Source: Gammaproteobacteria bacterium (GTDB lineage Bacteria > Pseudomonadota > Gammaproteobacteria > S012-40). From it: a DNA stretch of 64,000 bases. The DNA is taken from contig JAOUMY010000010.1 of NCBI GenBank assembly GCA_029881255.1, positions 92,653-156,652 on the forward strand, read 5' to 3'. Position 1 is the stretch's first letter; each line of letters begins with the position of its first letter. Below the pieces are notes generated by a model. It searched no databases. It worked only from the letters and a program-made list of their open reading frames with translations, and was not told the origin of the DNA. Position numbers and translations under genes: made by a program. Shown here in pieces: positions 20,495 to 52,130 of this stretch.

Positions 20495-20554
20495 TACCAA
20501 AAAAAAGGGCTCCCCATCGGGGAGCCCTTTTTTTTGGTATGGCGGAGAGGGAGG
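20480..20554. repeat. Perfect 36-bp-arm inverted repeat (3-nt loop) containing the last 15 nt of tRNA-Ser and a bidirectional terminator core
   Basis: The 20480-20515 arm is the exact reverse complement of 20519-20554. The inner part, GGGCTCCCC-atc-GGGGAGCCC, is flanked by A8/T8. Confidence 0.85.
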
Positions 20555-40369: not shown

Positions 40370-41716
40370 CTAAAAAATCGCTAACATCTGCAGGCCGAGA
40401 ATTGGATCTACGGCCTCGGCGAGTTGAACCGCAAGGTCACGCTTAGCTGGATCCGAAATGCTGTCAGGGTTTGGGACACTCATCATGCGATGAGTATAGT
40501 TGGCAACGATGCGAGTCTTTTTGTTTATAAAGTATTGCAGGCCTAATGTGGCGTTGCTAAACACGCGTTCTTTGCTAGGGGTGTGTGTGGAGCGATTGTA
40601 CTGATCCCAGCGGAAGTCGAATTCTATGTGCTTCGTAACGTTGTAGCCTATATGTGTGTAAAATCCCCAGGCTGTGCCATTGGCTTCTACGTTTATCCCG
40701 GCGAATTCAGCGCCGGCGTTTTTCGTGGCGCCGACGACGGCGCCGTCGTCGGTACCATTCAGGATAACGCCTGTGCCAGTAATAAATTCCGCCGCAGCGC
40801 TGAGTTTTCCTTTGCGAAAGGTGCTGCCCAGACCGGAACGTGTACGATCATATAATTGATTATCCAGCGTTCGCTTACCCATTTGCGTCCAGGCAAACAT
40901 CTTCCAGCTTTGCATGCGTGGCCCCTCACCGGCAAAGACTTGCTCAGCAGAAAAGTAGGCATAGTATTCTTTTTGATTGTTATTGTCCTGGCGATTAATA
41001 CCGTTGCCATTGCCTATCATCAGAGCATATGACGCTTGCCACTTTCCGAAAACAAACATGTCAAAAAGCTGGGCGCCTATGTCACGGAATGCTCCGCGTC
41101 CTGCGACCGGCTTGTTTACACTTTCTTTAGTCGTATGCGCTGTGGTGCCTGTACCATTAACAAACGTTTCGAAGAGCAGGCCGTCGGTTACACTGCTGAA
41201 GTTGATGTAATCAAACACATGTATGGCCTGCAAGCCTTCCTCCGCTCCAGGTGTTTTAAATTGACCAACTCTGAAACGTGCGCCCGGTATTTGGTTGAGT
41301 GTGATGCTGGCGTCAGTTAAATACGCCGAGCCGCCACCATCACCGGGCACTGTAAGCGCATTGTGGCCAAATTCCGCAAGAATGAAGTAATTGGTTTTGC
41401 CGTCGAGTGGAAAGCCTTGTCCCCGCACGCCAATACGTGCGCGACGAATATTCATATCCCAAGTGGATTTTCCGTCAGGGCCAAGTATGTTGGCTTGATA
41501 GCGCTGTCCGACATAATCGCCGGCTGGAATGGTAGTACCTTTTATATACTGAGCAGTGGGTTGTATAAACCCCCACACGTGAGCACGACCAGCGGCGGAT
41601 GTGGGCTCTGTTCCCTGTAGTAACAGCCAGTTTGCTGCATGCGCAGGCAAGCCAGGATTCATGACAACGGAGATACAAATCACTGCGAGCGACAATTTCT
41701 TCAAATCCATCGGCAA
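40370..41716 (-). CDS. Outer-membrane porin, phosphate-selective porin O/P-like
   Basis: 448 aa with a signal peptide ending PAHA, the RRARIGVRG motif typical of the OprO/OprP family, alternating beta-strand pattern and a C-terminal aromatic residue (...LAIF). Confidence 0.7.
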   Translation of the reverse strand: MPMDLKKLSLAVICISVVMNPGLPAHAANWLLLQGTEPTSAAGRAHVWGFIQPTAQYIKGTTIPAGDYVGQRYQANILGPDGKSTWDMNIRRARIGVRGQGFPLDGKTNYFILAEFGHNALTVPGDGGGSAYLTDASITLNQIPGARFRVGQFKTPGAEEGLQAIHVFDYINFSSVTDGLLFETFVNGTGTTAHTTKESVNKPVAGRGAFRDIGAQLFDMFVFGKWQASYALMIGNGNGINRQDNNNQKEYYAYFSAEQVFAGEGPRMQSWKMFAWTQMGKRTLDNQLYDRTRSGLGSTFRKGKLSAAAEFITGTGVILNGTDDGAVVGATKNAGAEFAGINVEANGTAWGFYTHIGYNVTKHIEFDFRWDQYNRSTHTPSKERVFSNATLGLQYFINKKTRIVANYTHRMMSVPNPDSISDPAKRDLAVQLAEAVDPILGLQMLAIF

Positions 41717-41745
41717 TTCCTCTTCAATCCGCTACAGCTCAAAGT

Positions 41746-42198
41746 CTATGGTTTAACAAGCGTAAACCCTTTGGCCGTAAGATCCAGTATGTGTATTACA
41801 CCGGCCGAAACAATTTTGGCCTGGTTGTGAAGCGCAGGTTCTTTTCCCATTTGTTTGGCGAAACTTTTCAAGGTGTTGTTGCAGGCCGCGAAACGTACGC
41901 CACCATTGTTTACCAAGCCGTCAATGCGGTCCTTGTTCTCGTTATCTGCAAACAACAAGCGTAAGCCAGGCCCGAAGGCGACGATCTCGACATCGATTTT
42001 GTCCGGACCAAACACTTGAATAAGATTGTTAGCGACATTCAAAACAAAAGTTTGTTTGAAGGGATCGGCGTCGCTGATTTGCAGAACCACTTTTTTCTCG
42101 GCGAATGGTTTGTCGTCCGTCGCCATAACAGCGCTGCTGCTTAATGCCAGAAAACTCAAAACACTCCAAAGGGCTAGTTTGTGTAATAAACCTTGCAT
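41746..42198 (-). CDS. Periplasmic DsrE/DsrF-like family protein
   Basis: About 150 aa. The start is the ATG at 42198 after GGAGGA. Signal peptide (LSFLALSSSAVMA). KKVVLQISDADP...VEIVAFGPGL...VRFAACNNT resembles the COG1416 DsrE-like fold with its Cys. Confidence 0.6.
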   Translation of the reverse strand: MQGLLHKLALWSVLSFLALSSSAVMATDDKPFAEKKVVLQISDADPFKQTFVLNVANNLIQVFGPDKIDVEIVAFGPGLRLLFADNENKDRIDGLVNNGGVRFAACNNTLKSFAKQMGKEPALHNQAKIVSAGVIHILDLTAKGFTLVKP

Positions 42199-42468
42199 GC
42201 AATCCTCCAAAAATGCTTATCAAATATGCTGTCATGCGATGTGTATGCTCCGGAAAAGTCATTGCGTGGCTGTTGACGGCGCCGCGAGTAAGTAACTCAT
42301 TATCGACTAAGCGTGGCCTTTGACCTCACAAACTAAACCTAAGATATGCATGGTCTTGGTCTTGGTCTTTGGTGACCAAGACCTTCACTATACACATTGC
42401 GTCAAGTTGTAAAACCCTGAAATATGCATGAATAGAACCAGGCGTGAATAGCAGAGAAAAAATTATCA

Positions 42469-43377
42469 TTATTGTGACAATAAATAGAATGCAATCGCAT
42501 CGATCTGATCGGGCGACATGACAGTTTTCCAGGCGGGCATAGCGCTCCCTTTGACGCCTTCGGAAATCTTTTGCGATAAGCTAGCGATAGTTTGTTCGCC
42601 CAGAAAGGCGGCTTGAGTAAGATCTCGTGGATGGGGAAGTATAAACTGGCCTATCCAGTTTTTGCCGCTGCCGTCATTTGCGTGACAGAAGGTGCAGTTT
42701 TGCTGGAATAATTGTTGGCCTTGCAGATAGCGAGGGTCTTTGTGGTTTGTTCTGGTGTCCATTTTTTTATCGTGCAGGGCGTATGGAGAGGCGCTACTCG
42801 TCGTGTCGATGTCTGCCGTTTTATGAGAATACTGATTGCGTGGATAGGATAGCGGCCTGGATTCCCACACAAGGCCTTGTTGCTTAACCGTAGCGCGGTC
42901 ATGGCAGGAAACACAGGACGACATGAAGAGCTGCTTTCCTTTTCGTTGAATTTCGCTGAGACTCTCCCAAGGCGTGTCGAGCGCAATCTCTCCGGACACA
43001 AAGGGGAAAGCATCGCGATAGCGCTGGTGATTTTCCCAGCCGTTTTCGCGGCTGTGATAGACCGTATTTTTTTCTTTATTTTGAATAAACACTTGTCGTA
43101 CAAATGAAACCACTTGTGTGATTTCGGCTTCGCTAAGGAGTTGCTTGAAACCCTTCATCGCCGTACCCGGTTTGCCATCTCTAACGGCATCGATCATTTG
43201 TTGATAGCTAAGATCACCTGGGCGGGTATCCAAAAACGAACGTGGCGGGGGGGTAAGAAAAGAGGCCGCCAATGTCTGTGCATCACCCGAGTATCCGTGG
43301 CAGAAGTAGCAACGATAATTGTAAATTGCGCGACCTGCTTCCAGACTTGCTCTGTCGCTATGCGCCGACGTCAGAGC
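42469..43377 (-). CDS. C-terminal three-heme half of a six-domain c-type cytochrome (reachable only by a -1 frame change from the upstream ORF)
   Basis: The frame is open from 43431. CxxCH motifs are CYFCH (43297-43311, upstream of the tracked TTG start), CVSCH and CTFCH. There is no ATG/GTG/TTG before 43272 and no signal peptide. Confidence 0.6.
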   Translation of the reverse strand, partial: ALTSAHSDRASLEAGRAIYNYRCYFCHGYSGDAQTLAASFLTPPPRSFLDTRPGDLSYQQMIDAVRDGKPGTAMKGFKQLLSEAEITQVVSFVRQVFIQNKEKNTVYHSRENGWENHQRYRDAFPFVSGEIALDTPWESLSEIQRKGKQLFMSSCVSCHDRATVKQQGLVWESRPLSYPRNQYSHKTADIDTTSSASPYALHDKKMDTRTNHKDPRYLQGQQLFQQNCTFCHANDGSGKNWIGQFILPHPRDLTQAAFLGEQTIASLSQKISEGVKGSAMPAWKTVMSPDQIDAIAFYLLSQ

Positions 43378-44339
43378 TTTTTTTTTATGAAAGTGAGATA
43401 GACAAATTCGGCTATGTTGGCAACCTGCTGATCATTGAGGACAGTCTCCCATGCGGGCATGACGGTGCCTTTTTTGCCTTTCTTGATGGCATGAAATAAG
43501 GCGGGTCTGTCGAAACGTTGTTGCGTGTCGGCAGAAGTGAAGTCTCTTGGGCGAGGATAATTGAAATGTGCCCGTGGGCCTTTGCCGTCGCCCTGTTTAC
43601 CATGACAGGTAAAACAATTGTTCATATAAAATTTTTCACCTGCTGCGCTATCACCGACTAATCCTTTAGGAAAATTGGCAGAAGCATCGCTAGCGGATGA
43701 CCGTTCACTTTTGCTGCTTTCTTCAGACATGAACGAAGCGCGTATAAAGTCGACCACGCTCTCAATTTGTTGTGCATCCAATCGTCGTTGAAACGACATC
43801 ATAGCGGTACCCGGACGGCCGTACGTAACCGAGGTAATCATTCGCTCACGGCTGAGTTCTTCTCGTGCTGCTTCGCTGGTGAAGTTGCGTGGCGGTGGCG
43901 TCAAACCGTTTTTTGCCCAGACGGCGGTATTGCCATTGTCGCCATGACAGGCAGCGCAATGCTCGATATAGAGTTGTTTGCCAGCGGGAGTTTTATCACC
44001 GGTTTTATGACCGACGAAATGCGCCATTATATAATCGGCCAGCGCCGCAATTTGGCTTTCGCTCAGGCGTCGCCCGTAGGCCACCATTGCCGTGCCTTTT
44101 TTGCCATCCCTTATGGCCTGTGCAATATTTTTCTTGTTTAACTTGTCTCGCAAGGCAGTAAAGCTACTCGCTGGAGGTTGAAGATTGGCTCCTGCCCGTC
44201 CGCGGCCATCACCTTCGTCGCCATGACAGACGCCGCATTGCTTGCGATACAAACGTTCCACATCGTCTGCCGCTTGCACTGGGGATAGCAGCAAAGGGAG
44301 TAGTAGCGAACAAATTGTAATAACAGTTTTCAAGGACAC
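43371..44339 (-). CDS. N-terminal three-heme half of a six-domain c-type cytochrome (class I-type domains)
   Basis: Signal peptide MSLKTVITICSLLLPLLLSPVQA. CxxCH motifs CGVCH, CAACH and CFTCH, each followed by PPxR..F and a G-T-[AV]-M axial-Met segment. Confidence 0.8.
   Translation of the reverse strand: MSLKTVITICSLLLPLLLSPVQAADDVERLYRKQCGVCHGDEGDGRGRAGANLQPPASSFTALRDKLNKKNIAQAIRDGKKGTAMVAYGRRLSESQIAALADYIMAHFVGHKTGDKTPAGKQLYIEHCAACHGDNGNTAVWAKNGLTPPPRNFTSEAAREELSRERMITSVTYGRPGTAMMSFQRRLDAQQIESVVDFIRASFMSEESSKSERSSASDASANFPKGLVGDSAAGEKFYMNNCFTCHGKQGDGKGPRAHFNYPRPRDFTSADTQQRFDRPALFHAIKKGKKGTVMPAWETVLNDQQVANIAEFVYLTFIKKKL
43377..43386 (-). other. A9 homopolymer / A_AAA_AAG slippery heptamer at the junction of the two cytochrome ORFs
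   Basis: The minus strand reads TTC ATA AAA AAA AAG CTC TGA. A -1 shift or one extra A continues as GCT CTG ACG... into the downstream heme domains. Confidence 0.5.
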
Positions 44340-44477: not shown

Positions 44478-45287
44478 ATGTTTTTTAGTCAGGAAAAGGG
44501 TTCACCACGTAGCAGGGCTCGCTGGGGTATTGTGTCAGCTGTGGCGCTCGCATGTACCGCGTGGCTGAACATGACTCACGGTGAAGCGATTATTGGTGAC
44601 CCGGTTCAAGGGGCTAATGATCCGATACTCGGTACCAAACACGATTTTACCGGCCTCAATAAACGCGCTGGCGTTGTCGCCATGCCGGGCGTGGCGTTTA
44701 GTGATTTTGGTAATCCCTGCGTGCACTGTCACATTCCGCCGGATCAGGCAGATTCTGATTCGATAGCGCTTGGGGCAATTGAAGGCTGGAACCGCTATCA
44801 ACCGGCAACGAATGAATATCGCCTTTATGACAGCGTGCACCTTGATTCAAAAACGCGCACGCCAAGTCCGATCAGTTTACTTTGTCTTTCCTGTCATGAC
44901 GGCACCATGGGTGTAGACATGGTGGTATTCAAGCCTGGCAATTTTGACAGCGCCGAAGACAAGGCCATGCACATGCGTATCAATTCGGCGGACAATACCG
45001 TGAGTTGCGGAAAGTGTCATAATGGACGCGTCGCCCACGACATCTCGATCAAGCATCTTGCGCAAGATCTGAAGAACGATCATCCCATCTCGATGCGTTA
45101 TGCCGGTTTGTTACGCTCAGACGTTGATTTTCGACTGCCCCACACGCCTGGTGGTTTTGACAATGGCGTCAAGCTGTATGAAGGTCGGGTAGAGTGCGCG
45201 AGCTGTCACAACGTCCATAATCCTGAAAAAGACCTGTTATTGCGTGCTGACTCCGATCTTTTATGTCAGACCTGTCACACCAAATAA
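44478..45287 (+). CDS. Pentaheme c-type cytochrome (cytochrome c3 / doubled-CxxCH type)
   Basis: 269 aa with a signal sequence and five CxxCH motifs (CVHCH, CLSCH, CGKCH, CASCH, CQTCH). The last pair fits the doubled-CxxCH pattern C..CH.VH......LL......LC..CH. Confidence 0.8.
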   Translation: MFFSQEKGSPRSRARWGIVSAVALACTAWLNMTHGEAIIGDPVQGANDPILGTKHDFTGLNKRAGVVAMPGVAFSDFGNPCVHCHIPPDQADSDSIALGAIEGWNRYQPATNEYRLYDSVHLDSKTRTPSPISLLCLSCHDGTMGVDMVVFKPGNFDSAEDKAMHMRINSADNTVSCGKCHNGRVAHDISIKHLAQDLKNDHPISMRYAGLLRSDVDFRLPHTPGGFDNGVKLYEGRVECASCHNVHNPEKDLLLRADSDLLCQTCHTK

Positions 45288-46363
45288 ACGCCCGATTTTC
45301 GGCTATCGGTGTATGGGCATTTGTCATTGCTCTGTTGTCGGGCTGCGCAACACCACAAATTCGGCTAATTGATCCTCCTGTATATCCACCCCTACCCGCA
45401 GAAACGCGTTATGTCTACGAAGGATCGATTCGTAGTGGCAATAATATTACGGTGTCGACGTTTTCCGATCGCCTCAGAGAATTTGTGACGGGTATACAAG
45501 TTTCACCGCTGGGACTGGCCAAGCCCTATAGTTTGGTGGTGAAGAATGAACGGATTTATGTGTCGGACACACAGCAGCGCGCGATACTGGTGTTTGATCT
45601 GCAGCAGCGCACAGTCTCCAGTTTTGGCATGGAAGGTAAGGGCAGTCTGCTCAAACCGCTGGACCTGGCTATCTCCAAAGAAGACGAAATCTATGTAGTC
45701 GACATCTCCGCTAAACGGGTTGCCGTTTACGACTTGCAGGGGGATTATCTTCGCGCAATAGGTTCAGCCGATGATTTTCAACGGCCGGTTGGCATCGCCT
45801 GTCATCCGTCCAAGCCCTGGGTTTACGTGGTGGATGCCGGTGGTCTTGAAAGTGATAAACATCAAATTCTGATATTTGACAGACAAAGTGGCGCCTTAAT
45901 ACGTAAATTTGGTACACGCGGACGCGAACCTGGTCAGTTTAATTTGCCCCTTCAGGCAAGTATGAGTGAAGACGCGCGTTTGTACGTGGTCGATAGTGCG
46001 AATTTTCGCGTGCAGGTATTCGACGAAAACGGTGAATTTGTTTCCACCTTTGGGCAGCTCGGGCGTCGTAGTGGGCAGTTTTCTCGGCCCAAAGGGATAG
46101 CAACCGATAAGAATGGCAACGCCTATATTGTCGATACTGCGTTTGGCAATTTTCAGATTTTCACCCCGCAGGGCGAGTTGCTTTTATATATTGGTGCGCG
46201 CGCGACGTCTGGCGGGCCGGGAATGTTTAGTCTACCTTCCGGCATAGATGTAGATGAGCAGGGACGTATCTATGTCGTCGACCAGTTTTTCCGTAAGATC
46301 GATATCTTTCGTCCCGTTGAGATACCGCCGCGCAAGGTGTTTAGCTCACAAGTTCGACAATAG
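45263..46363 (+). CDS. NHL-repeat six-bladed beta-propeller lipoprotein
   Basis: Lipobox LLSGC. Six repeats of the form [IVL]YV[VS]D...R[VI].[VI][FY]D..G......G. Overlaps the cytochrome gene by 25 nt. Confidence 0.75.
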   Translation: MSDLSHQINARFSAIGVWAFVIALLSGCATPQIRLIDPPVYPPLPAETRYVYEGSIRSGNNITVSTFSDRLREFVTGIQVSPLGLAKPYSLVVKNERIYVSDTQQRAILVFDLQQRTVSSFGMEGKGSLLKPLDLAISKEDEIYVVDISAKRVAVYDLQGDYLRAIGSADDFQRPVGIACHPSKPWVYVVDAGGLESDKHQILIFDRQSGALIRKFGTRGREPGQFNLPLQASMSEDARLYVVDSANFRVQVFDENGEFVSTFGQLGRRSGQFSRPKGIATDKNGNAYIVDTAFGNFQIFTPQGELLLYIGARATSGGPGMFSLPSGIDVDEQGRIYVVDQFFRKIDIFRPVEIPPRKVFSSQVRQ

Positions 46364-48834: not shown

Positions 48835-49500
48835 TTACTTGTGCGCGCAGAGTAATTCGTCGAGTGCGTAAAGGCGTTCGGGCGTGCCGATATCACTCCA
48901 GATTCCGGCATAGTGTTCGCCGCTAACAGCGTTGCGCGCCATGGCGGCGCGTAGCAATGGCGCTAAGGGAAAGCGTCCAGGCGAACAATTTTTAAACAAT
49001 TGTGGGTGATAAATGCCGATGCCACTATAAGTCAGGCGTGGTTGACCTTCGGCGTAAACCCTATCGTTTTCGAAAAAGAAATCGCCGCGTGGATGGTGTT
49101 CTGGATTACTCACCATGACCAGGTGGGCCTCTTCTATTTTGCGGTTGGTAAAAGTGGCAAAGGGAAAGTCTGTCCATACGTCGCCGTTGACCAGAATAAA
49201 CGGCTCCTCACCGAGCAATGGCAGGGCTTTAAAAATACCGCCACCGGTTTCCAGTGCCTCTCCTTCACGGGAGTATTCAATGCTGACACCGTAGTCGCTG
49301 CCGTCACCGAGTTTCTCTACGATTTTTTCACCGAGATAGGCCAGATTGATAACAAACTCACTGACACCGGCTTCTTTCAAGGAATCCAGATGATATTCAA
49401 TCAACGTTTTCCCGCCCAGTTCCAGCATGGGTTTGGGAATATTATCGGTTAATGGCCGCATGCGTTCACCACGACCGGCGGCGAGTATCATGGCCTTCAT
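48835..49500 (-). CDS. murU: N-acetylmuramate alpha-1-phosphate uridylyltransferase MurU
   Basis: MKAMILAAGRGERMRPLTDNIPKPML... is a nucleotidyltransferase fold. The ATG at 49500 overlaps the amgK stop (ATGA). Gene pair and position next to lptD match Pseudomonas. Confidence 0.8.
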   Translation of the reverse strand: MKAMILAAGRGERMRPLTDNIPKPMLELGGKTLIEYHLDSLKEAGVSEFVINLAYLGEKIVEKLGDGSDYGVSIEYSREGEALETGGGIFKALPLLGEEPFILVNGDVWTDFPFATFTNRKIEEAHLVMVSNPEHHPRGDFFFENDRVYAEGQPRLTYSGIGIYHPQLFKNCSPGRFPLAPLLRAAMARNAVSGEHYAGIWSDIGTPERLYALDELLCAHK

Positions 49501-50531
49501 TTCTTTAGTCCTGTTTGCATATCGAACACAGGTAATACCTTGTCTTTGATGATTTGGCCTAACGGGGCGAGTTCTGAATATCTTTCGACCACGTGCATCA
49601 CATAGCCTAGCGTGCGTGGAATGTCTTTCAGGTAGCCCGATTTGCCATCGCGGTAATTCAGACGAGCAAAGATTCCGATAGCCTTGAGGTGGCGTTGCGT
49701 GCCCATCCAGTCGAACCAGCGTTGAAATTGTTCGGGATCGGTTTGTTCGATAACGTCGGCCTTTTGCAGGCGTTCCCGGAAATCGTTTACCCATTGCATC
49801 GTTCTGTCGACGGGCCAGTCTATATAACAATCACGCAGCAAGGAAACGAGGTCATAGGTTACCGCACCGTAAACCGCATCCTGAAAATCGAGGATGCCGG
49901 GATTGTTTTCATCCAATAACATCAGGTTGCGCGAATGGTAATCGCGGTGGACCCATACCTGTGGCTGGCTCAATGCCGACTGTGCCAAGGCTTCAAAGAC
50001 TGAATGGAGCGCATCTTTTTCACTCGCGCTGATATCGATACCGATGTGTTTGGCGAGAAACCAGTCCGGGAACAGGTTCATTTCGCGCAACAATAATTCG
50101 TGGTTGTAGTCGGGAAGGCGATGGTCTTCCTGTTTTCCCTTTTGTTGCAATACGACTAAGGCGTCCATGGCGTCGTTATACATATCGTCGACGCTGTCGC
50201 TATTGAGGTGATCCAGGTACTGTTGGTTGCCAAGATCACTGAGCAGGAGAAATCCCTGGTCGAGATCCTCTGCGAGTATCTCGGGCACATGCAAACCGAT
50301 TTGGCAAAACGCGCGGGCGACGTCGACAAAGGGACGACAATTCTCTTTGTCAGGTGGAGCGTCCATCGCGATATACGACAAATCACGAAACAACACCCGG
50401 AAGTAACGACGAAAACTGGCGTCGCCCGACGCCGGTACAATGGACGCATCGCGCAGCTCAACGGTATCGCTTAACCAATCGCGCAGCTGTAGAAAACGTT
50501 CATCATGGTCTTTTACGTTCATTCGCCTCAC
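49497..50531 (-). CDS. amgK: N-acetylmuramate/N-acetylglucosamine kinase AmgK (APH-family kinase fold)
   Basis: 344 aa with a phosphotransferase-family catalytic loop (VHRDYHSRNLM) and DFQDA. Translationally coupled to murU. Confidence 0.8.
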   Translation of the reverse strand: MRRMNVKDHDERFLQLRDWLSDTVELRDASIVPASGDASFRRYFRVLFRDLSYIAMDAPPDKENCRPFVDVARAFCQIGLHVPEILAEDLDQGFLLLSDLGNQQYLDHLNSDSVDDMYNDAMDALVVLQQKGKQEDHRLPDYNHELLLREMNLFPDWFLAKHIGIDISASEKDALHSVFEALAQSALSQPQVWVHRDYHSRNLMLLDENNPGILDFQDAVYGAVTYDLVSLLRDCYIDWPVDRTMQWVNDFRERLQKADVIEQTDPEQFQRWFDWMGTQRHLKAIGIFARLNYRDGKSGYLKDIPRTLGYVMHVVERYSELAPLGQIIKDKVLPVFDMQTGLKK

Positions 50532-50858: not shown

Positions 50859-52130
50859 TCAAGCAGAAGAAACTCGGGGCAGTGCCGTGTCTTGGACTTC
50901 TTCCTGTGGAATCCACAAAGTGACAGTAGATCCCTGGCCAAGGGTGCTCGCGATTTCGATGTTTCCGCCATGCTGTACCAGGATATTTTTGATCGTGGGC
51001 ATGCCGAGACCAACGCCGAAACTGCGGGTGCTGAACAAGGGTTCGAATATACGCGGCAGAACTTCCGGGGCAATACCACAGCCGCTGTCTTCGATAATTA
51101 TTTCTACGCGCTGACCCGACAAACGAGTATTGATAGTGAGCTGTCTGAGCGAATGTTCATCTTTGTTTTCGCGTATCGCATGAGAGCCGTTATCAAGTAC
51201 GTTGATGATGGCGCGGCGCAGTCTTTCTTCGTCGATATTCACGAGATACTCGGGCGGTAATTGCGTGTCTCGTTTGACGTTAATGGTTTCATCGACATGG
51301 TATTGTTCGATGACGTCGTCGAGCCAGGTGTCGAGCGCAACCGTATTCAGGTTGAGCTCGGGCTGGCGCGTGTAGTCGAGCATTTCATCAATAATTTGGT
51401 TGCAGCGAAAGGCGTTGCGATCGAGTATGTCCAGCAACTTCTTCAGATGATGGCCTGTTTTCGCGTCTTTGCGTCGCAAAGCGTAGATGGCTGTTGTCAT
51501 CGCCCCCAATGGGTTGCGTAACTCATGATTGACAGTTGCGGTGAGTTGACCGACGACAGCAAATTTCTCTTTCTTGATCAACTCTTCTTCCAGCCGATGA
51601 CGGGTTTCCAATTCGGCTTTGAGGGCATCAGTAAAGCGCTCATTTTCCAGGCACAGGTGTAGCGTCTTGCGAAAATTCTGCATCACCGGTGATAACACCC
51701 GATCAAGGCGTACCTCCAGTTTGGGAGATTCTCGGGAAAACAACAGTATTGTGTGATGTTCGTCCACAGGAAGCCGCAGTCCGGCGCTATAATGTGTTTC
51801 TTTGCCAAATACAGATTGGATTGTTGTACTGTCCTCAAACACGCCGGCTTCACCGCACAATAATTCAATGGGCAGCTCAAGGTGTTGTCCGATTTTATTG
51901 CGCACGGCACCGCCACCAATCGCAAATTGCAGGCGGGCGAGAATGTATGGCGGTGGATTTTTCGTGTCTGTTTCAGGGCGTGCTATATCGGAAAAAAAAA
52001 CGCCGCTCGAAAACGGCGTATGGTAGAGCAATCGTTGTAGTGTCTTGGTGACCAGCGGTTCTACGCGGGTTTCACCACCAGTGACCAGGGCGAGATCATA
52101 TAAAACTTGTAAAACCTGCTCTCGCTTCAT
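50859..52130 (-). CDS. Cytoplasmic sensor histidine kinase (GAF-like N-domain - HisKA - HATPase)
   Basis: 423 aa with no TM segment. H-box NHELRNPLGAM, N-box VLDNGSHAI, and G-boxes DSGCGI/GVGLGM. Confidence 0.8.
   Translation of the reverse strand: MKREQVLQVLYDLALVTGGETRVEPLVTKTLQRLLYHTPFSSGVFFSDIARPETDTKNPPPYILARLQFAIGGGAVRNKIGQHLELPIELLCGEAGVFEDSTTIQSVFGKETHYSAGLRLPVDEHHTILLFSRESPKLEVRLDRVLSPVMQNFRKTLHLCLENERFTDALKAELETRHRLEEELIKKEKFAVVGQLTATVNHELRNPLGAMTTAIYALRRKDAKTGHHLKKLLDILDRNAFRCNQIIDEMLDYTRQPELNLNTVALDTWLDDVIEQYHVDETINVKRDTQLPPEYLVNIDEERLRRAIINVLDNGSHAIRENKDEHSLRQLTINTRLSGQRVEIIIEDSGCGIAPEVLPRIFEPLFSTRSFGVGLGMPTIKNILVQHGGNIEIASTLGQGSTVTLWIPQEEVQDTALPRVSSA

Follow-up and report, generated by a model that had tools for sequence, protein, structure and literature searches.

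A run of nine adenines lies at the junction of two halves of a c-type cytochrome gene and probably serves as a conserved programmed frame-change site, at which slippage of RNA polymerase, adding one A, would be the main process. The gene (42469..44339, minus strand) belongs to a 64-kb stretch of DNA, called the window here, which was analysed at its full length. When one A is added to the run, the two halves become a single gene for a 623-aa protein with six haem-binding motifs.

In the proposed model most transcripts and ribosomes would, by default, read through the run and stop 4 nt further on, and the unslipped product, of about 35 kDa, would be an exported cytochrome c with three haems. 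RNA polymerase would slip back on the T9 template in a set fraction of the transcripts and gain one A, and ordinary translation of the resulting A10 mRNA would join the N-half to the C-half encoded in the -1 frame. The long product, a six-haem cytochrome of about 68 kDa, would reach the periplasm by means of the N-half signal peptide and have its haem attached there. We infer that the frame shift occurs in vivo, that it takes place mainly in transcription and not in translation, and that the run also sets the ratio of the short to the long form. The earlier expectation of three-haem and six-haem isoforms from the one locus is retained in this model.

Layout of the split gene

The N-half is a zero-frame ORF of 322 aa (43371..44339, minus strand) that encodes a three-haem class I cytochrome c with the motifs CGVCH (44237-44223), CAACH (43958-43944) and CFTCH (43616-43602). 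It starts with GTG at 44339, and TTG 44333 may be the true start instead. A Sec-type signal peptide (44271..44339, minus strand), MSLKTVITICSLLLPLLLSPVQA followed by AD, is predicted from the translation and aligns with the signal peptides of homologues; on this evidence it is the sole export signal for the whole unit. The 3′ end of the ORF reads TTC ATA AAA AAA AAG CTC TGA, and the protein ends in FIKKKL. The putative slippage site is a run of exactly nine A (43378..43386, minus strand) within the zero-frame codons ATA AAA AAA AAG, which also provide the heptamer A_AAA_AAG at 43383..43377. The zero-frame stop, TGA (43371..43373), follows 4 nt past the run. The last stop of the -1 frame ahead of the run is a TGA at 43432..43434, and this frame is open from 43431 onwards. 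Taken together, the stops in both frames confine the shift in the window locus to 43431..43374.

The C-half (42469..43377, minus strand) is encoded in the -1 frame, runs from ALTSAHSDR to LLSQ and terminates at TAA 42471-42469. Its three CxxCH motifs are CYFCH (43311-43297), CVSCH (42915-42901) and CTFCH (42696-42682). The first of these, the fourth haem-binding motif of the recoded gene, is part of the family-specific YNYRCYFCHGY, which is invariant in alignment A2. The window holds no signal peptide for the C-half and no usable start codon ahead of its first haem site; the first ATG, GTG or TTG of the -1 frame past the run is TTG 43272, downstream of CYFCH. No terminator is found on the coding strand between the two halves. 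Only two A or T runs of at least nine bases occur in the whole window, one of them exactly at the cytochrome junction. The ORF coordinates, the six CxxCH motifs, the A9 run, the heptamer, the -1 frame and the missing start ahead of TTG 43272 had all been described in a sequence-only reading of this DNA and proved correct on rechecking. Frame analysis likewise agrees with its statement that fusion calls for an added A in the A9 run or else a -1 shift there.

The 623-aa fusion contains five significant Pfam stretches of the Cytochrome_CBB3 / Cytochrom_C type (PF13442, E = 8e-70 over five stretches; PF00034, E = 2e-57). Repeated CxxCH motifs in domains, combined with an N-terminal export signal present on the N-half only, place it among the class I multi-domain c-type cytochromes. 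The nearest solved structures are those of a Kuenenia dihaem protein (6h5l_B) and CcoP. In an AlphaFold model of the fusion (pTM 0.33), residues 322-327 have a pLDDT below 50 and are flanked by confident domains, so that the frame junction is modelled as a low-confidence inter-domain linker.

Conservation of the A run and of the C-half

The comparative set consists of 160 loci, taken from about 500 genome matches plus metagenome matches. A run at the junction of a split gene is found in 53 distinct loci, the window and 52 others, nearly all of them from Gammaproteobacteria; its length is A9 in 46, A10 in six and A11 in one. These loci come from independent MAGs and metagenomes with a GC content of 40-66%. 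In 53/53 of them it is the -1 frame that encodes the C-half, and one added nucleotide is needed; this count stands for fewer than 53 independent events since the loci are phylogenetically related. This uniformity upholds the earlier view of the two ORFs as one expression unit. Pairwise identity of the C-halves among the run-bearing loci is 42-95%, with a median of 57%, and each of the 37 complete C-halves has three CxxCH motifs and about 295-320 open codons. Because all 37 are intact, the C-half is judged to be under purifying selection.

Across the family the zero-frame stop is located 1-42 nt past the run, and in other loci the upstream stop of the -1 frame comes, at its closest, within -1 to +2 nt of the start of the run. 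As the stops of both frames sit so closely around it, the shift is pinned to the run itself. Elsewhere in the same genes 60% of the Lys codons are AAA, a share that falls to 15% in some loci. The junction is nevertheless all A, which points to selection on the run at the nucleotide level. The run is also conserved independently of its codon phase, being in phase 0 at 43 loci, in phase 1 at six and in phase 2 at four. One zero-frame product (P0016) occurs with exactly the same sequence on 15 contigs from several samples, which indicates that the split state is stable. Over evolutionary time the run does mutate, as seen from close relatives that differ in run length or frame, with A9 in frame (L088), A10 in frame (L087) and A11 out of frame (L160). 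The length of the run in some single assemblies could be miscounted.

Homologues with one contiguous ORF (P0001-P0010) span 94-99% of the recoded gene product. Such fused homologues exist without a run (P0001, P0006-P0009) as well as with an A9 or A10 run in frame (L086-L090), which argues that the fused protein is a real entity. Comparison of orthologues, proposed earlier as a check, has thus brought out both contiguous ORFs and a conserved A run. The C-half shares 45-59% identity with the C-halves of fused and two-gene homologues. Many stand-alone three-haem homologues of about 345 aa terminate in KKK and a few further residues.

A different arrangement is seen in the 73 relatives without the run, mostly Betaproteobacteria and Magnetococcales, of which at least 70 have a start codon and then a hydrophobic signal peptide ahead of the C-half. 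A candidate start with a hydrophobic N-terminus, and a marginal one, is present in only one of 39 run-bearing loci. Given this single marginal case, and the lack in the window of any ATG, GTG or TTG from the run to the fourth haem motif, translation of the C-half from a start of its own is rejected. In these sequences the run and a signal peptide of the C-half's own are mutually exclusive, and the A run appears to take the role of the second start codon and signal peptide of the two-gene relatives. The claim that the C-half could be made and exported only as a fusion to the N-half is strengthened accordingly by the relatives. Orthologues with a separate start and signal peptide for the C-half, which the sequence-only reading had named as evidence against itself, do exist in Betaproteobacteria, but at loci without the run. 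Run-less two-gene orthologues of this kind support a programmed reading of the run-bearing loci instead of refuting it.

Probable slippage in transcription and rival explanations

Bacterial RNA polymerase has an RNA:DNA hybrid of 9-10 bp and slips efficiently at nine A/T (PMC5009743). On Thermus thermophilus dnaX it inserts one or more A (PMC5009743). [quoted passage not shown] The cytochrome junctions have a run of at least nine bases, about the length of the hybrid, placed exactly at the frame change; there is no A8 among the 53 junctions and no A7 junction in an A{7,} screen. Both segments joined by the slip look functional, with intact C-halves and the fused homologues P0001-P0010. The length of the run, its variable phase and the lack of conserved stimulators favour transcription as the level at which the frame is changed.

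Programmed -1 ribosomal frameshifting, or sliding of the ribosome on poly-A, is a possible but doubtful alternative as the main process. The mRNA would keep its A9, and in a fraction of ribosomes tRNA-Lys in the P and A sites would slip back by one base, on A_AAA_AAG in the window or on A_AAA_AAA in most relatives, before translation went on in the -1 frame. Transcriptional slippage and a ribosomal -1 shift yield the identical protein, and the two cannot be separated by sequence alone. The heptamer pattern X_XXY_YYZ is present in the zero frame, as A_AAA_AAG in eight loci including that of the window and as A_AAA_AAA in the rest, and tandem slippage usually goes in the -1 direction that is required here. 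In E. coli, A_AAA_AAG shifts more readily than any other heptamer (PMC4066793). Since an A9 run holds an in-phase A_AAA_AAA whatever its phase, variable phase is compatible with ribosomal shifting too, and according to a review both processes may share one site (PMC5009743). However, just 8/53 loci have the preferred A_AAA_AAG in phase with the zero frame, and most of the 53 read AAA AAA AAA G. The emphasis first placed on a dnaX-type site is not supported: the conserved feature is a run length of at least nine and not the heptamer. Seven bases would suffice for the ribosome, but all junctions have at least nine A.

The stimulators expected for a ribosomal shift are not conserved either. A downstream hairpin, GCUCUG...CAGAGC, had been noted in the window as a possible stimulator, though at a closer spacing than in classical ones. 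It is present, yet at -14.2 kcal/mol it is no more stable than shuffled sequences (mean -15.1, z = +0.39; 132 of 200 shuffles fold at least as well), and its position is not conserved. No stable dnaX-type stem-loop was found 5-9 nt past the heptamer, the window giving z values of +0.07 to +0.39. Across the family the 50 nt downstream have a mean z of -0.67 and no position-conserved hairpin; strong hairpins occur in only some loci, 11-25 nt away and at variable positions. The 45 nt upstream show no convincing structure (mean z +0.29). Shine-Dalgarno-like 4-mers 6-14 nt upstream are not enriched (8/53 loci against 14/53 in a control window), and the window locus has none. In dnaX and in IS elements, slippery heptamers without stimulators are usually of low efficiency, which also counts against the ribosomal alternative. 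RNA polymerase slippage is thus the preferred reading; some of the shifting, above all in the window locus, may be ribosomal.

Switching of the tract length in the DNA by slipped-strand mispairing, with the six-haem form turned on and off and the assembly recording the majority state, is very unlikely. Poly-A tracts are slippery for DNA polymerase as well (PMC3711429), and the close relatives with an in-frame A9, an in-frame A10 or an out-of-frame A11, like the four fused ORFs that keep the run in frame, are what such switching could leave. Free switching should, however, leave both out-of-frame states, and 53/53 loci share the one that needs an added nucleotide; a contingency locus would display the on state and both off states within a lineage. 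The out-of-frame state moreover dominates by 53 to 4, and P0016 has an identical state on all of its 15 contigs. The gene encodes a redox protein of the periplasm, not a surface antigen, in free-living bacteria of the chemolithotroph type. Scarcely credible is an artefact or decay, in which a true A10 lost one A in assembly or a recent pseudogene makes the three-haem protein only. Homopolymers are a classic source of assembly errors, and the exact N-half protein is absent from the protein and gene collections, as would fit a pseudogene label in the source record. The frame break is nevertheless shared by 52 further distinct loci. The window itself appears well assembled, with long intact ORFs and a homopolymer break in no gene but this one. 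At the level of the family, homopolymer sequencing error is rejected because of this recurrence in independent assemblies and because the A10 and A11 loci need the frame change in the same sense. A pseudogene is rejected on account of the 37/37 complete C-halves that retain all haem motifs over a 42-95% range of identity. Conservation at 53 loci has in this way removed both alternatives that the sequence-only reading had kept beside programmed recoding.

Known recoding systems and the possible role of the cytochrome

Among stable chromosomal genes of bacteria, programmed recoding is known from only a few: prfB, dnaX, copA, a Mg-chelatase group and some Shigella genes. No recoding of a cytochrome c was found in the published literature covered, which lay outside the survey of disrupted bacterial ORFs by Sharma et al. 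2011 (Mol Biol Evol). The nearest parallels are dnaX of Thermus thermophilus, with transcriptional slippage at A9, and the two-ORF dnaX of Chlorobi-type genomes with A7-A10 (PMC5009743; PMC3711429). Like the cytochrome gene, dnaX is chromosomal and non-mobile, and its A9-A10 run separates the coding sequences of two protein segments. RNA polymerase adds the A's there, and a short and a long protein come from the one gene, as is proposed for the cytochrome. In the two-ORF dnaX the long product depends on the slip, as it would at the cytochrome locus, and dnaX homologues too come in both in-frame and out-of-frame configurations. In contrast to the cytoplasmic clamp-loader subunit made from dnaX, the product here is an exported multi-haem cytochrome c known from its sequence, and only through the slip would its C-half be exported and receive haem. 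The -1 ribosomal shift of E. coli dnaX, with A_AAA_AAG, an upstream Shine-Dalgarno sequence and a downstream stem-loop, shares heptamer, phase and direction with the window. However, it truncates the DnaX protein whereas the cytochrome would be extended, neither stimulator is present or conserved at the cytochrome, and most family members have no in-phase AAG.

The Mg-chelatase (chlD-like) cluster of Antonov et al. 2013 (PMC3711429) also has adjacent ORFs annotated separately, a -1 shift at poly-A of 7-11 and fused single-ORF homologues in other taxa. The efficiency of such poly-A sites increases with run length (PMC3711429). It differs in protein family and compartment; the cytochrome run is never shorter than nine, and the cytochrome family has a third architecture of two genes, each with a signal peptide. 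In the Shigella flexneri mxiE and spa genes (T9; A8-A10), as cited in PMC3711429, slippage at about nine A/T joins two overlapping frames of a chromosomal or plasmid gene by an added base. These cases are confined to one genus and its virulence plasmid, in contrast to dozens of species-level lineages for the cytochrome.

The cytochrome may well be the first example of programmed transcriptional slippage in an exported respiratory electron carrier, in which A9 replaces a second start and signal peptide in many Gammaproteobacteria and yields a fixed ratio of tri- to hexahaem forms that partner a pentahaem cytochrome and an NHL protein. If so, it adds a large and widely distributed recoding family, in which about 500 species-level genomes have relatives of the C-half and dozens have the run-bearing form. 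No earlier case would then concern an exported haem protein, half of which depends on the change of frame for access to the periplasm. The ratio of the two forms could then be tuned by run length or by the conditions of transcription, and the family would record moves of lineages among four architectures: two genes, split with run, fused with run and fused without run. With a codon phase that varies and a length that does not, the family constitutes a natural experiment for transcriptional versus ribosomal shifting. Such loci are annotated as two genes for c-type cytochromes, the second without a signal peptide, or as pseudogenes. As a consequence, metabolic reconstructions of sulfur-, iron- and electrode-oxidising Gammaproteobacteria miss the hexahaem protein.

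Divergent from the cytochrome gene, on the plus strand, lie a gene for a five-CxxCH cytochrome with a paired-CXXCH domain (44478-45287) and one for an NHL-repeat beta-propeller protein (45263-46363). The cytochrome probably works in periplasmic electron transfer together with these two neighbours, and the set of tri- and hexahaem forms would possibly take part in extracellular electron uptake. The gene pair (44478..46363) also adjoins the cytochrome in eight other loci (L001-L003 and L086-L090). Gene content and order in these loci and in the window match the 'secondary c-type cytochrome cluster' of Candidatus Tenderia electrophaga and the Tenderiales (bioRxiv 10.1101/2022.05.06.490989), which consists of a c-di-GMP phosphodiesterase, an NHL-domain protein, a pentahaem cytochrome and two adjacent tri-haem cytochromes (ALP54654.1, ALP54655.1). 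In the preprint, by contrast, each of the two tri-haem proteins is assigned a gene of its own, and no frameshift is mentioned (bioRxiv 10.1101/2022.05.06.490989). The shared gene content suggests that the two halves of the window cytochrome may be orthologous to ALP54654/5.

The split cytochrome gene and its predicted product

On the minus strand of the window, a 322-aa ORF with a GTG start (44339..43371; hereafter the N-half) carries a typical signal peptide, MSLKTVITICSLLLPLLLSPVQA|AD, and three CxxCH motifs, and closes with TTC ATA AAA AAA AAG CTC TGA, its run comprising exactly nine A (43386..43378). Re-reading bore out the sequence-only reading on each of these points. The -1 frame is open from a TGA at 43434-43432 to the terminal TAA at 42471-42469; its translation begins ALTSAHSDRASLEAGRAIYNYRCYFCHGY... 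and holds three further CxxCH motifs (the C-half), at 43311-43297 (the fourth haem site), 42915-42901 and 42696-42682. As had been claimed, no ATG, GTG or TTG of this frame past the run precedes the fourth haem site, the first being the TTG at 43272. One additional A at the run does give the anticipated 623-aa protein with six haem sites upon translation, and five stretches of it match Pfam class I cytochrome c domains significantly. An AlphaFold model built from 18 aligned sequences has confident domains and low-confidence linkers (mean pLDDT 75.9, pTM 0.33). Residues 322-327, immediately past KKK, form one such linker, so the frame change is predicted to fall between domains.

A search with the fused sequence returned contiguous homologues of 622-682 aa (P0001-P0010; 94-99% coverage, 45-52% identity) as well as very many three-haem proteins of about 345 aa that match the N-half only. 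In the alignment the C-termini of these short proteins coincide exactly with the junction. The best 120 matches include 98 proteins with three haems; KKK with at most 13 further residues forms the C-terminus of 66 of these, and about ten more end in EKKS or EKKN. Judged by these matches, both the fused protein and its halves are genuine protein families. No KK stands at the junction of the fused homologues P0001 and P0006-P0009, and a run is therefore impossible there.

Conservation of the junction in relatives

A species-representative genome collection and a metagenome collection were scanned with an alignment of the C-half; a relative was encoded in 505 of 532 and 478 of 600 matched stretches, respectively, and 160 of the approximately 1000 matching loci were fetched and examined. 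After removal of duplicates, 53 split junctions carried a run (A9 in 46, A10 in six, A11 in one), counts that are not independent events, the loci being phylogenetically related. The C-half lies in the -1 frame, requiring one extra nucleotide, at all 53. A zero-frame stop follows 1-42 nt past the run, and the nearest upstream stop of the -1 frame lies between 181 nt before the run start and 2 nt inside it; taken together, the stops permit a shift only within the run. G is the next base in 47 of the 53. Three independent assemblies (L001-L003) share an A9 in ACG GAA AAA AAA AGC CCG TCC TAG with the C-half in the -1 frame, where the gene caller places its start at a TTG shortly 5′ of the haem motif, without a signal peptide. 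Loci from a JGI metagenome (L005) and an ENA metagenome (L004) have A10, the C-half again being in the -1 frame. On the L004 contig, of low (3x) coverage, the third haem motif has a stop, TGA, precisely where its first Cys is expected (L004:1521-1535; AAT TGA TTC ACC TGT CAT, N * F T C H), probably a read error.

Four fused ORFs contain the run in frame (L086, L087 and L090 with A10, L088/L089 with A9), and a neighbour-joining tree built from C-halves places them inside clades of run-type loci. The same junction differs among three close relatives: the run is in frame as A10 in L087 and as A9 in L088, and out of frame as A11 in L160; at L160 a -1 frame TAA overlaps the run start and a zero-frame TAG follows 1 nt past the run. 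Run length evidently changes over short evolutionary time while both frames stay intact.

A homopolymer error or a decaying pseudogene, the alternatives allowed for by the sequence-only reading, is contradicted across the family. At run-bearing loci every one of the 37 complete C-halves retains some 295-320 open codons and three CxxCH motifs, at pairwise identities of 42-95% (median 57%), in host DNA of 40 to 66% GC. Lysine codons elsewhere in these genes are AAA 970 times and AAG 642 times, and the AAA share falls as low as 15% in some loci, yet nothing but A occurs at the junction. Fifteen contigs encode the L002-type zero-frame product with exactly the same sequence. Error and recent decay are thereby ruled out as general explanations. 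The window has long intact ORFs and only one other A/T run of at least nine bases. This is a T9 on the minus strand (51992-52000) within a histidine-kinase ORF (50859-52130), where GGC GTT TTT TTT TCC (GVFFS) is in frame and the ORF uninterrupted, a slippage-prone tract within a regulatory gene.

Probable transcriptional and possible ribosomal frame change

A ribosomal -1 shift and the insertion of one A by RNA polymerase yield the identical protein. Transcriptional slippage, in which RNA polymerase would add an A at the run and so join the C-half to the N-half, is favoured on sequence grounds because the run is never shorter than nine, its codon phase varies and dnaX-type stimulators are not conserved. 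A ribosomal site needs only seven bases, and the run occupies phase 0 in 43 loci, phase 1 in six and phase 2 in four. The efficient heptamer A_AAA_AAG is in phase in the window, as had been noted, but in only eight of the 53 loci including it. Run-type loci show no conserved dnaX-type stimulators and no enrichment of Shine-Dalgarno-like motifs; their folding has a mean z of +0.29 upstream of the run and -0.67 downstream, at variable positions. The window hairpin noted earlier has z = +0.39, no better than chance. Strong hairpins (z -2.5 to -4.3) do occur 11-25 nt past the run at L053, L083, L103, L149, L165, L014, L139 and L010; their distances vary, and most loci, the window among them, lack one. 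A ribosomal shift may nonetheless act, alone or beside slippage, as an in-phase A_AAA_AAA lies within any A9 and a single site may be subject to both processes; in the window in particular it may add to the yield. Two out-of-frame states are possible, but all out-of-frame loci share one of them, which makes phase variation at the DNA level unlikely.

Slippage by RNA polymerase at such a run has precedent. The bacterial enzyme has a hybrid of 9-10 bp and slips efficiently at nine A/T, and in Thermus thermophilus dnaX one or more A's are added in diminishing proportion (PMC5009743), behaviour that fits the transcriptional reading of the cytochrome run. Insertions made during transcription at A/T homopolymers are mostly of one base and become exponentially more frequent as the run lengthens (PMC5574713), and in E. 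coli reporters a cassette with nine A's led to 40% frameshifting (PMC3711429). No recoded cytochrome c gene appears in the 2016 recoding review, in the main text and two supplementary files of the GeneTack survey (1106 genomes) or in full-text literature searches, whose scope did not extend to the survey of Sharma et al. 2011. Novelty lies not in the favoured mechanism, whose kind is known, but in the gene family, its tie to protein export and how widely it is conserved.

Two-gene relatives and genomic neighbourhood

The 73 distinct loci without a run belong mostly to Betaproteobacteria (Aromatoleum, Azoarcus, Rhodocyclaceae, Gallionellaceae, Burkholderiales) and Magnetococcales, with some Gammaproteobacteria. 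At 70 of these loci the stretch before the first haem motif of the C-half has a start codon followed by a strongly hydrophobic segment, and the other three are borderline, though also signal-peptide-like; the same test found one marginal candidate among 39 run-bearing loci. Orthologues in which the C-half has its own start and signal peptide, named by the sequence-only reading as evidence against a single gene, thus exist, at loci that lack the run. Run and separate export signal are on these counts mutually exclusive, a pattern to be expected were expression and export of the C-half to depend on the run. Attachment of c-type haem takes place in the periplasm, and without a signal peptide the C-half would therefore serve no purpose unless fused. 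In several Betaproteobacteria (L022, L052, L062, L064, L077 and other no-run loci) the separate C-half has a signal peptide of lipobox type just upstream of CYFCHG (for example LLVSLAACSD, LLSLGACSE, VLAGCSE), which points to a lipoprotein anchored in the membrane; the C-half of run-type Gammaproteobacteria is tethered to the N-half instead. Although they have no run, most two-gene loci (L019-L080) still have their C-half gene offset from the N-half gene to the -1 frame, a relation that may go back to a run-type ancestor or just to common descent within Betaproteobacteria.

The window cytochrome has as divergent neighbours a cytochrome with five CxxCH motifs and an NHL-repeat protein, with a GGDEF-EAL protein nearby, and these neighbours recur in relatives; a role in periplasmic electron transfer is likely. 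The AlaS of the source gammaproteobacterium is 81% identical to its closest match and 73% to the next ones, from Gammaproteobacteria. The gene content of the neighbourhood matches the 'secondary c-type cytochrome cluster' of Candidatus Tenderia electrophaga and Tenderiales, whose genes are by that content putative orthologues; that cluster is described with two adjacent tri-haem cytochromes as separate proteins and no mention of a frameshift. Downstream of the cytochrome (40370-42210) the window encodes a 154-aa protein and a 448-aa one that looks porin-like, both without a Pfam or NCBIfam match; L088/L089 (L088:5175-7434) have, in the equivalent place, a protein of 116 aa and one resembling Porin_O_P, and in other relatives asd (aspartate-semialdehyde dehydrogenase) follows directly.

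Elsewhere in the window, at 20499-20535, a perfect palindrome rich in GC (ccataccAAAAAAAAgggctccccatcggggagcccTTTTTTTTggtatgg) lies between an A8 and a T8, an arrangement that looks like a bidirectional intrinsic terminator. Two minus-strand ORFs at 48835-50531 overlap by 334 nt; the overlap is an artefact of ORF extension and no frameshift, the NTP_transferase domain of the downstream ORF not starting until residue 112. With an APH-type kinase first and a nucleotidyl transferase after it, the two recall an AmgK/MurU-like pair of cell-wall recycling.
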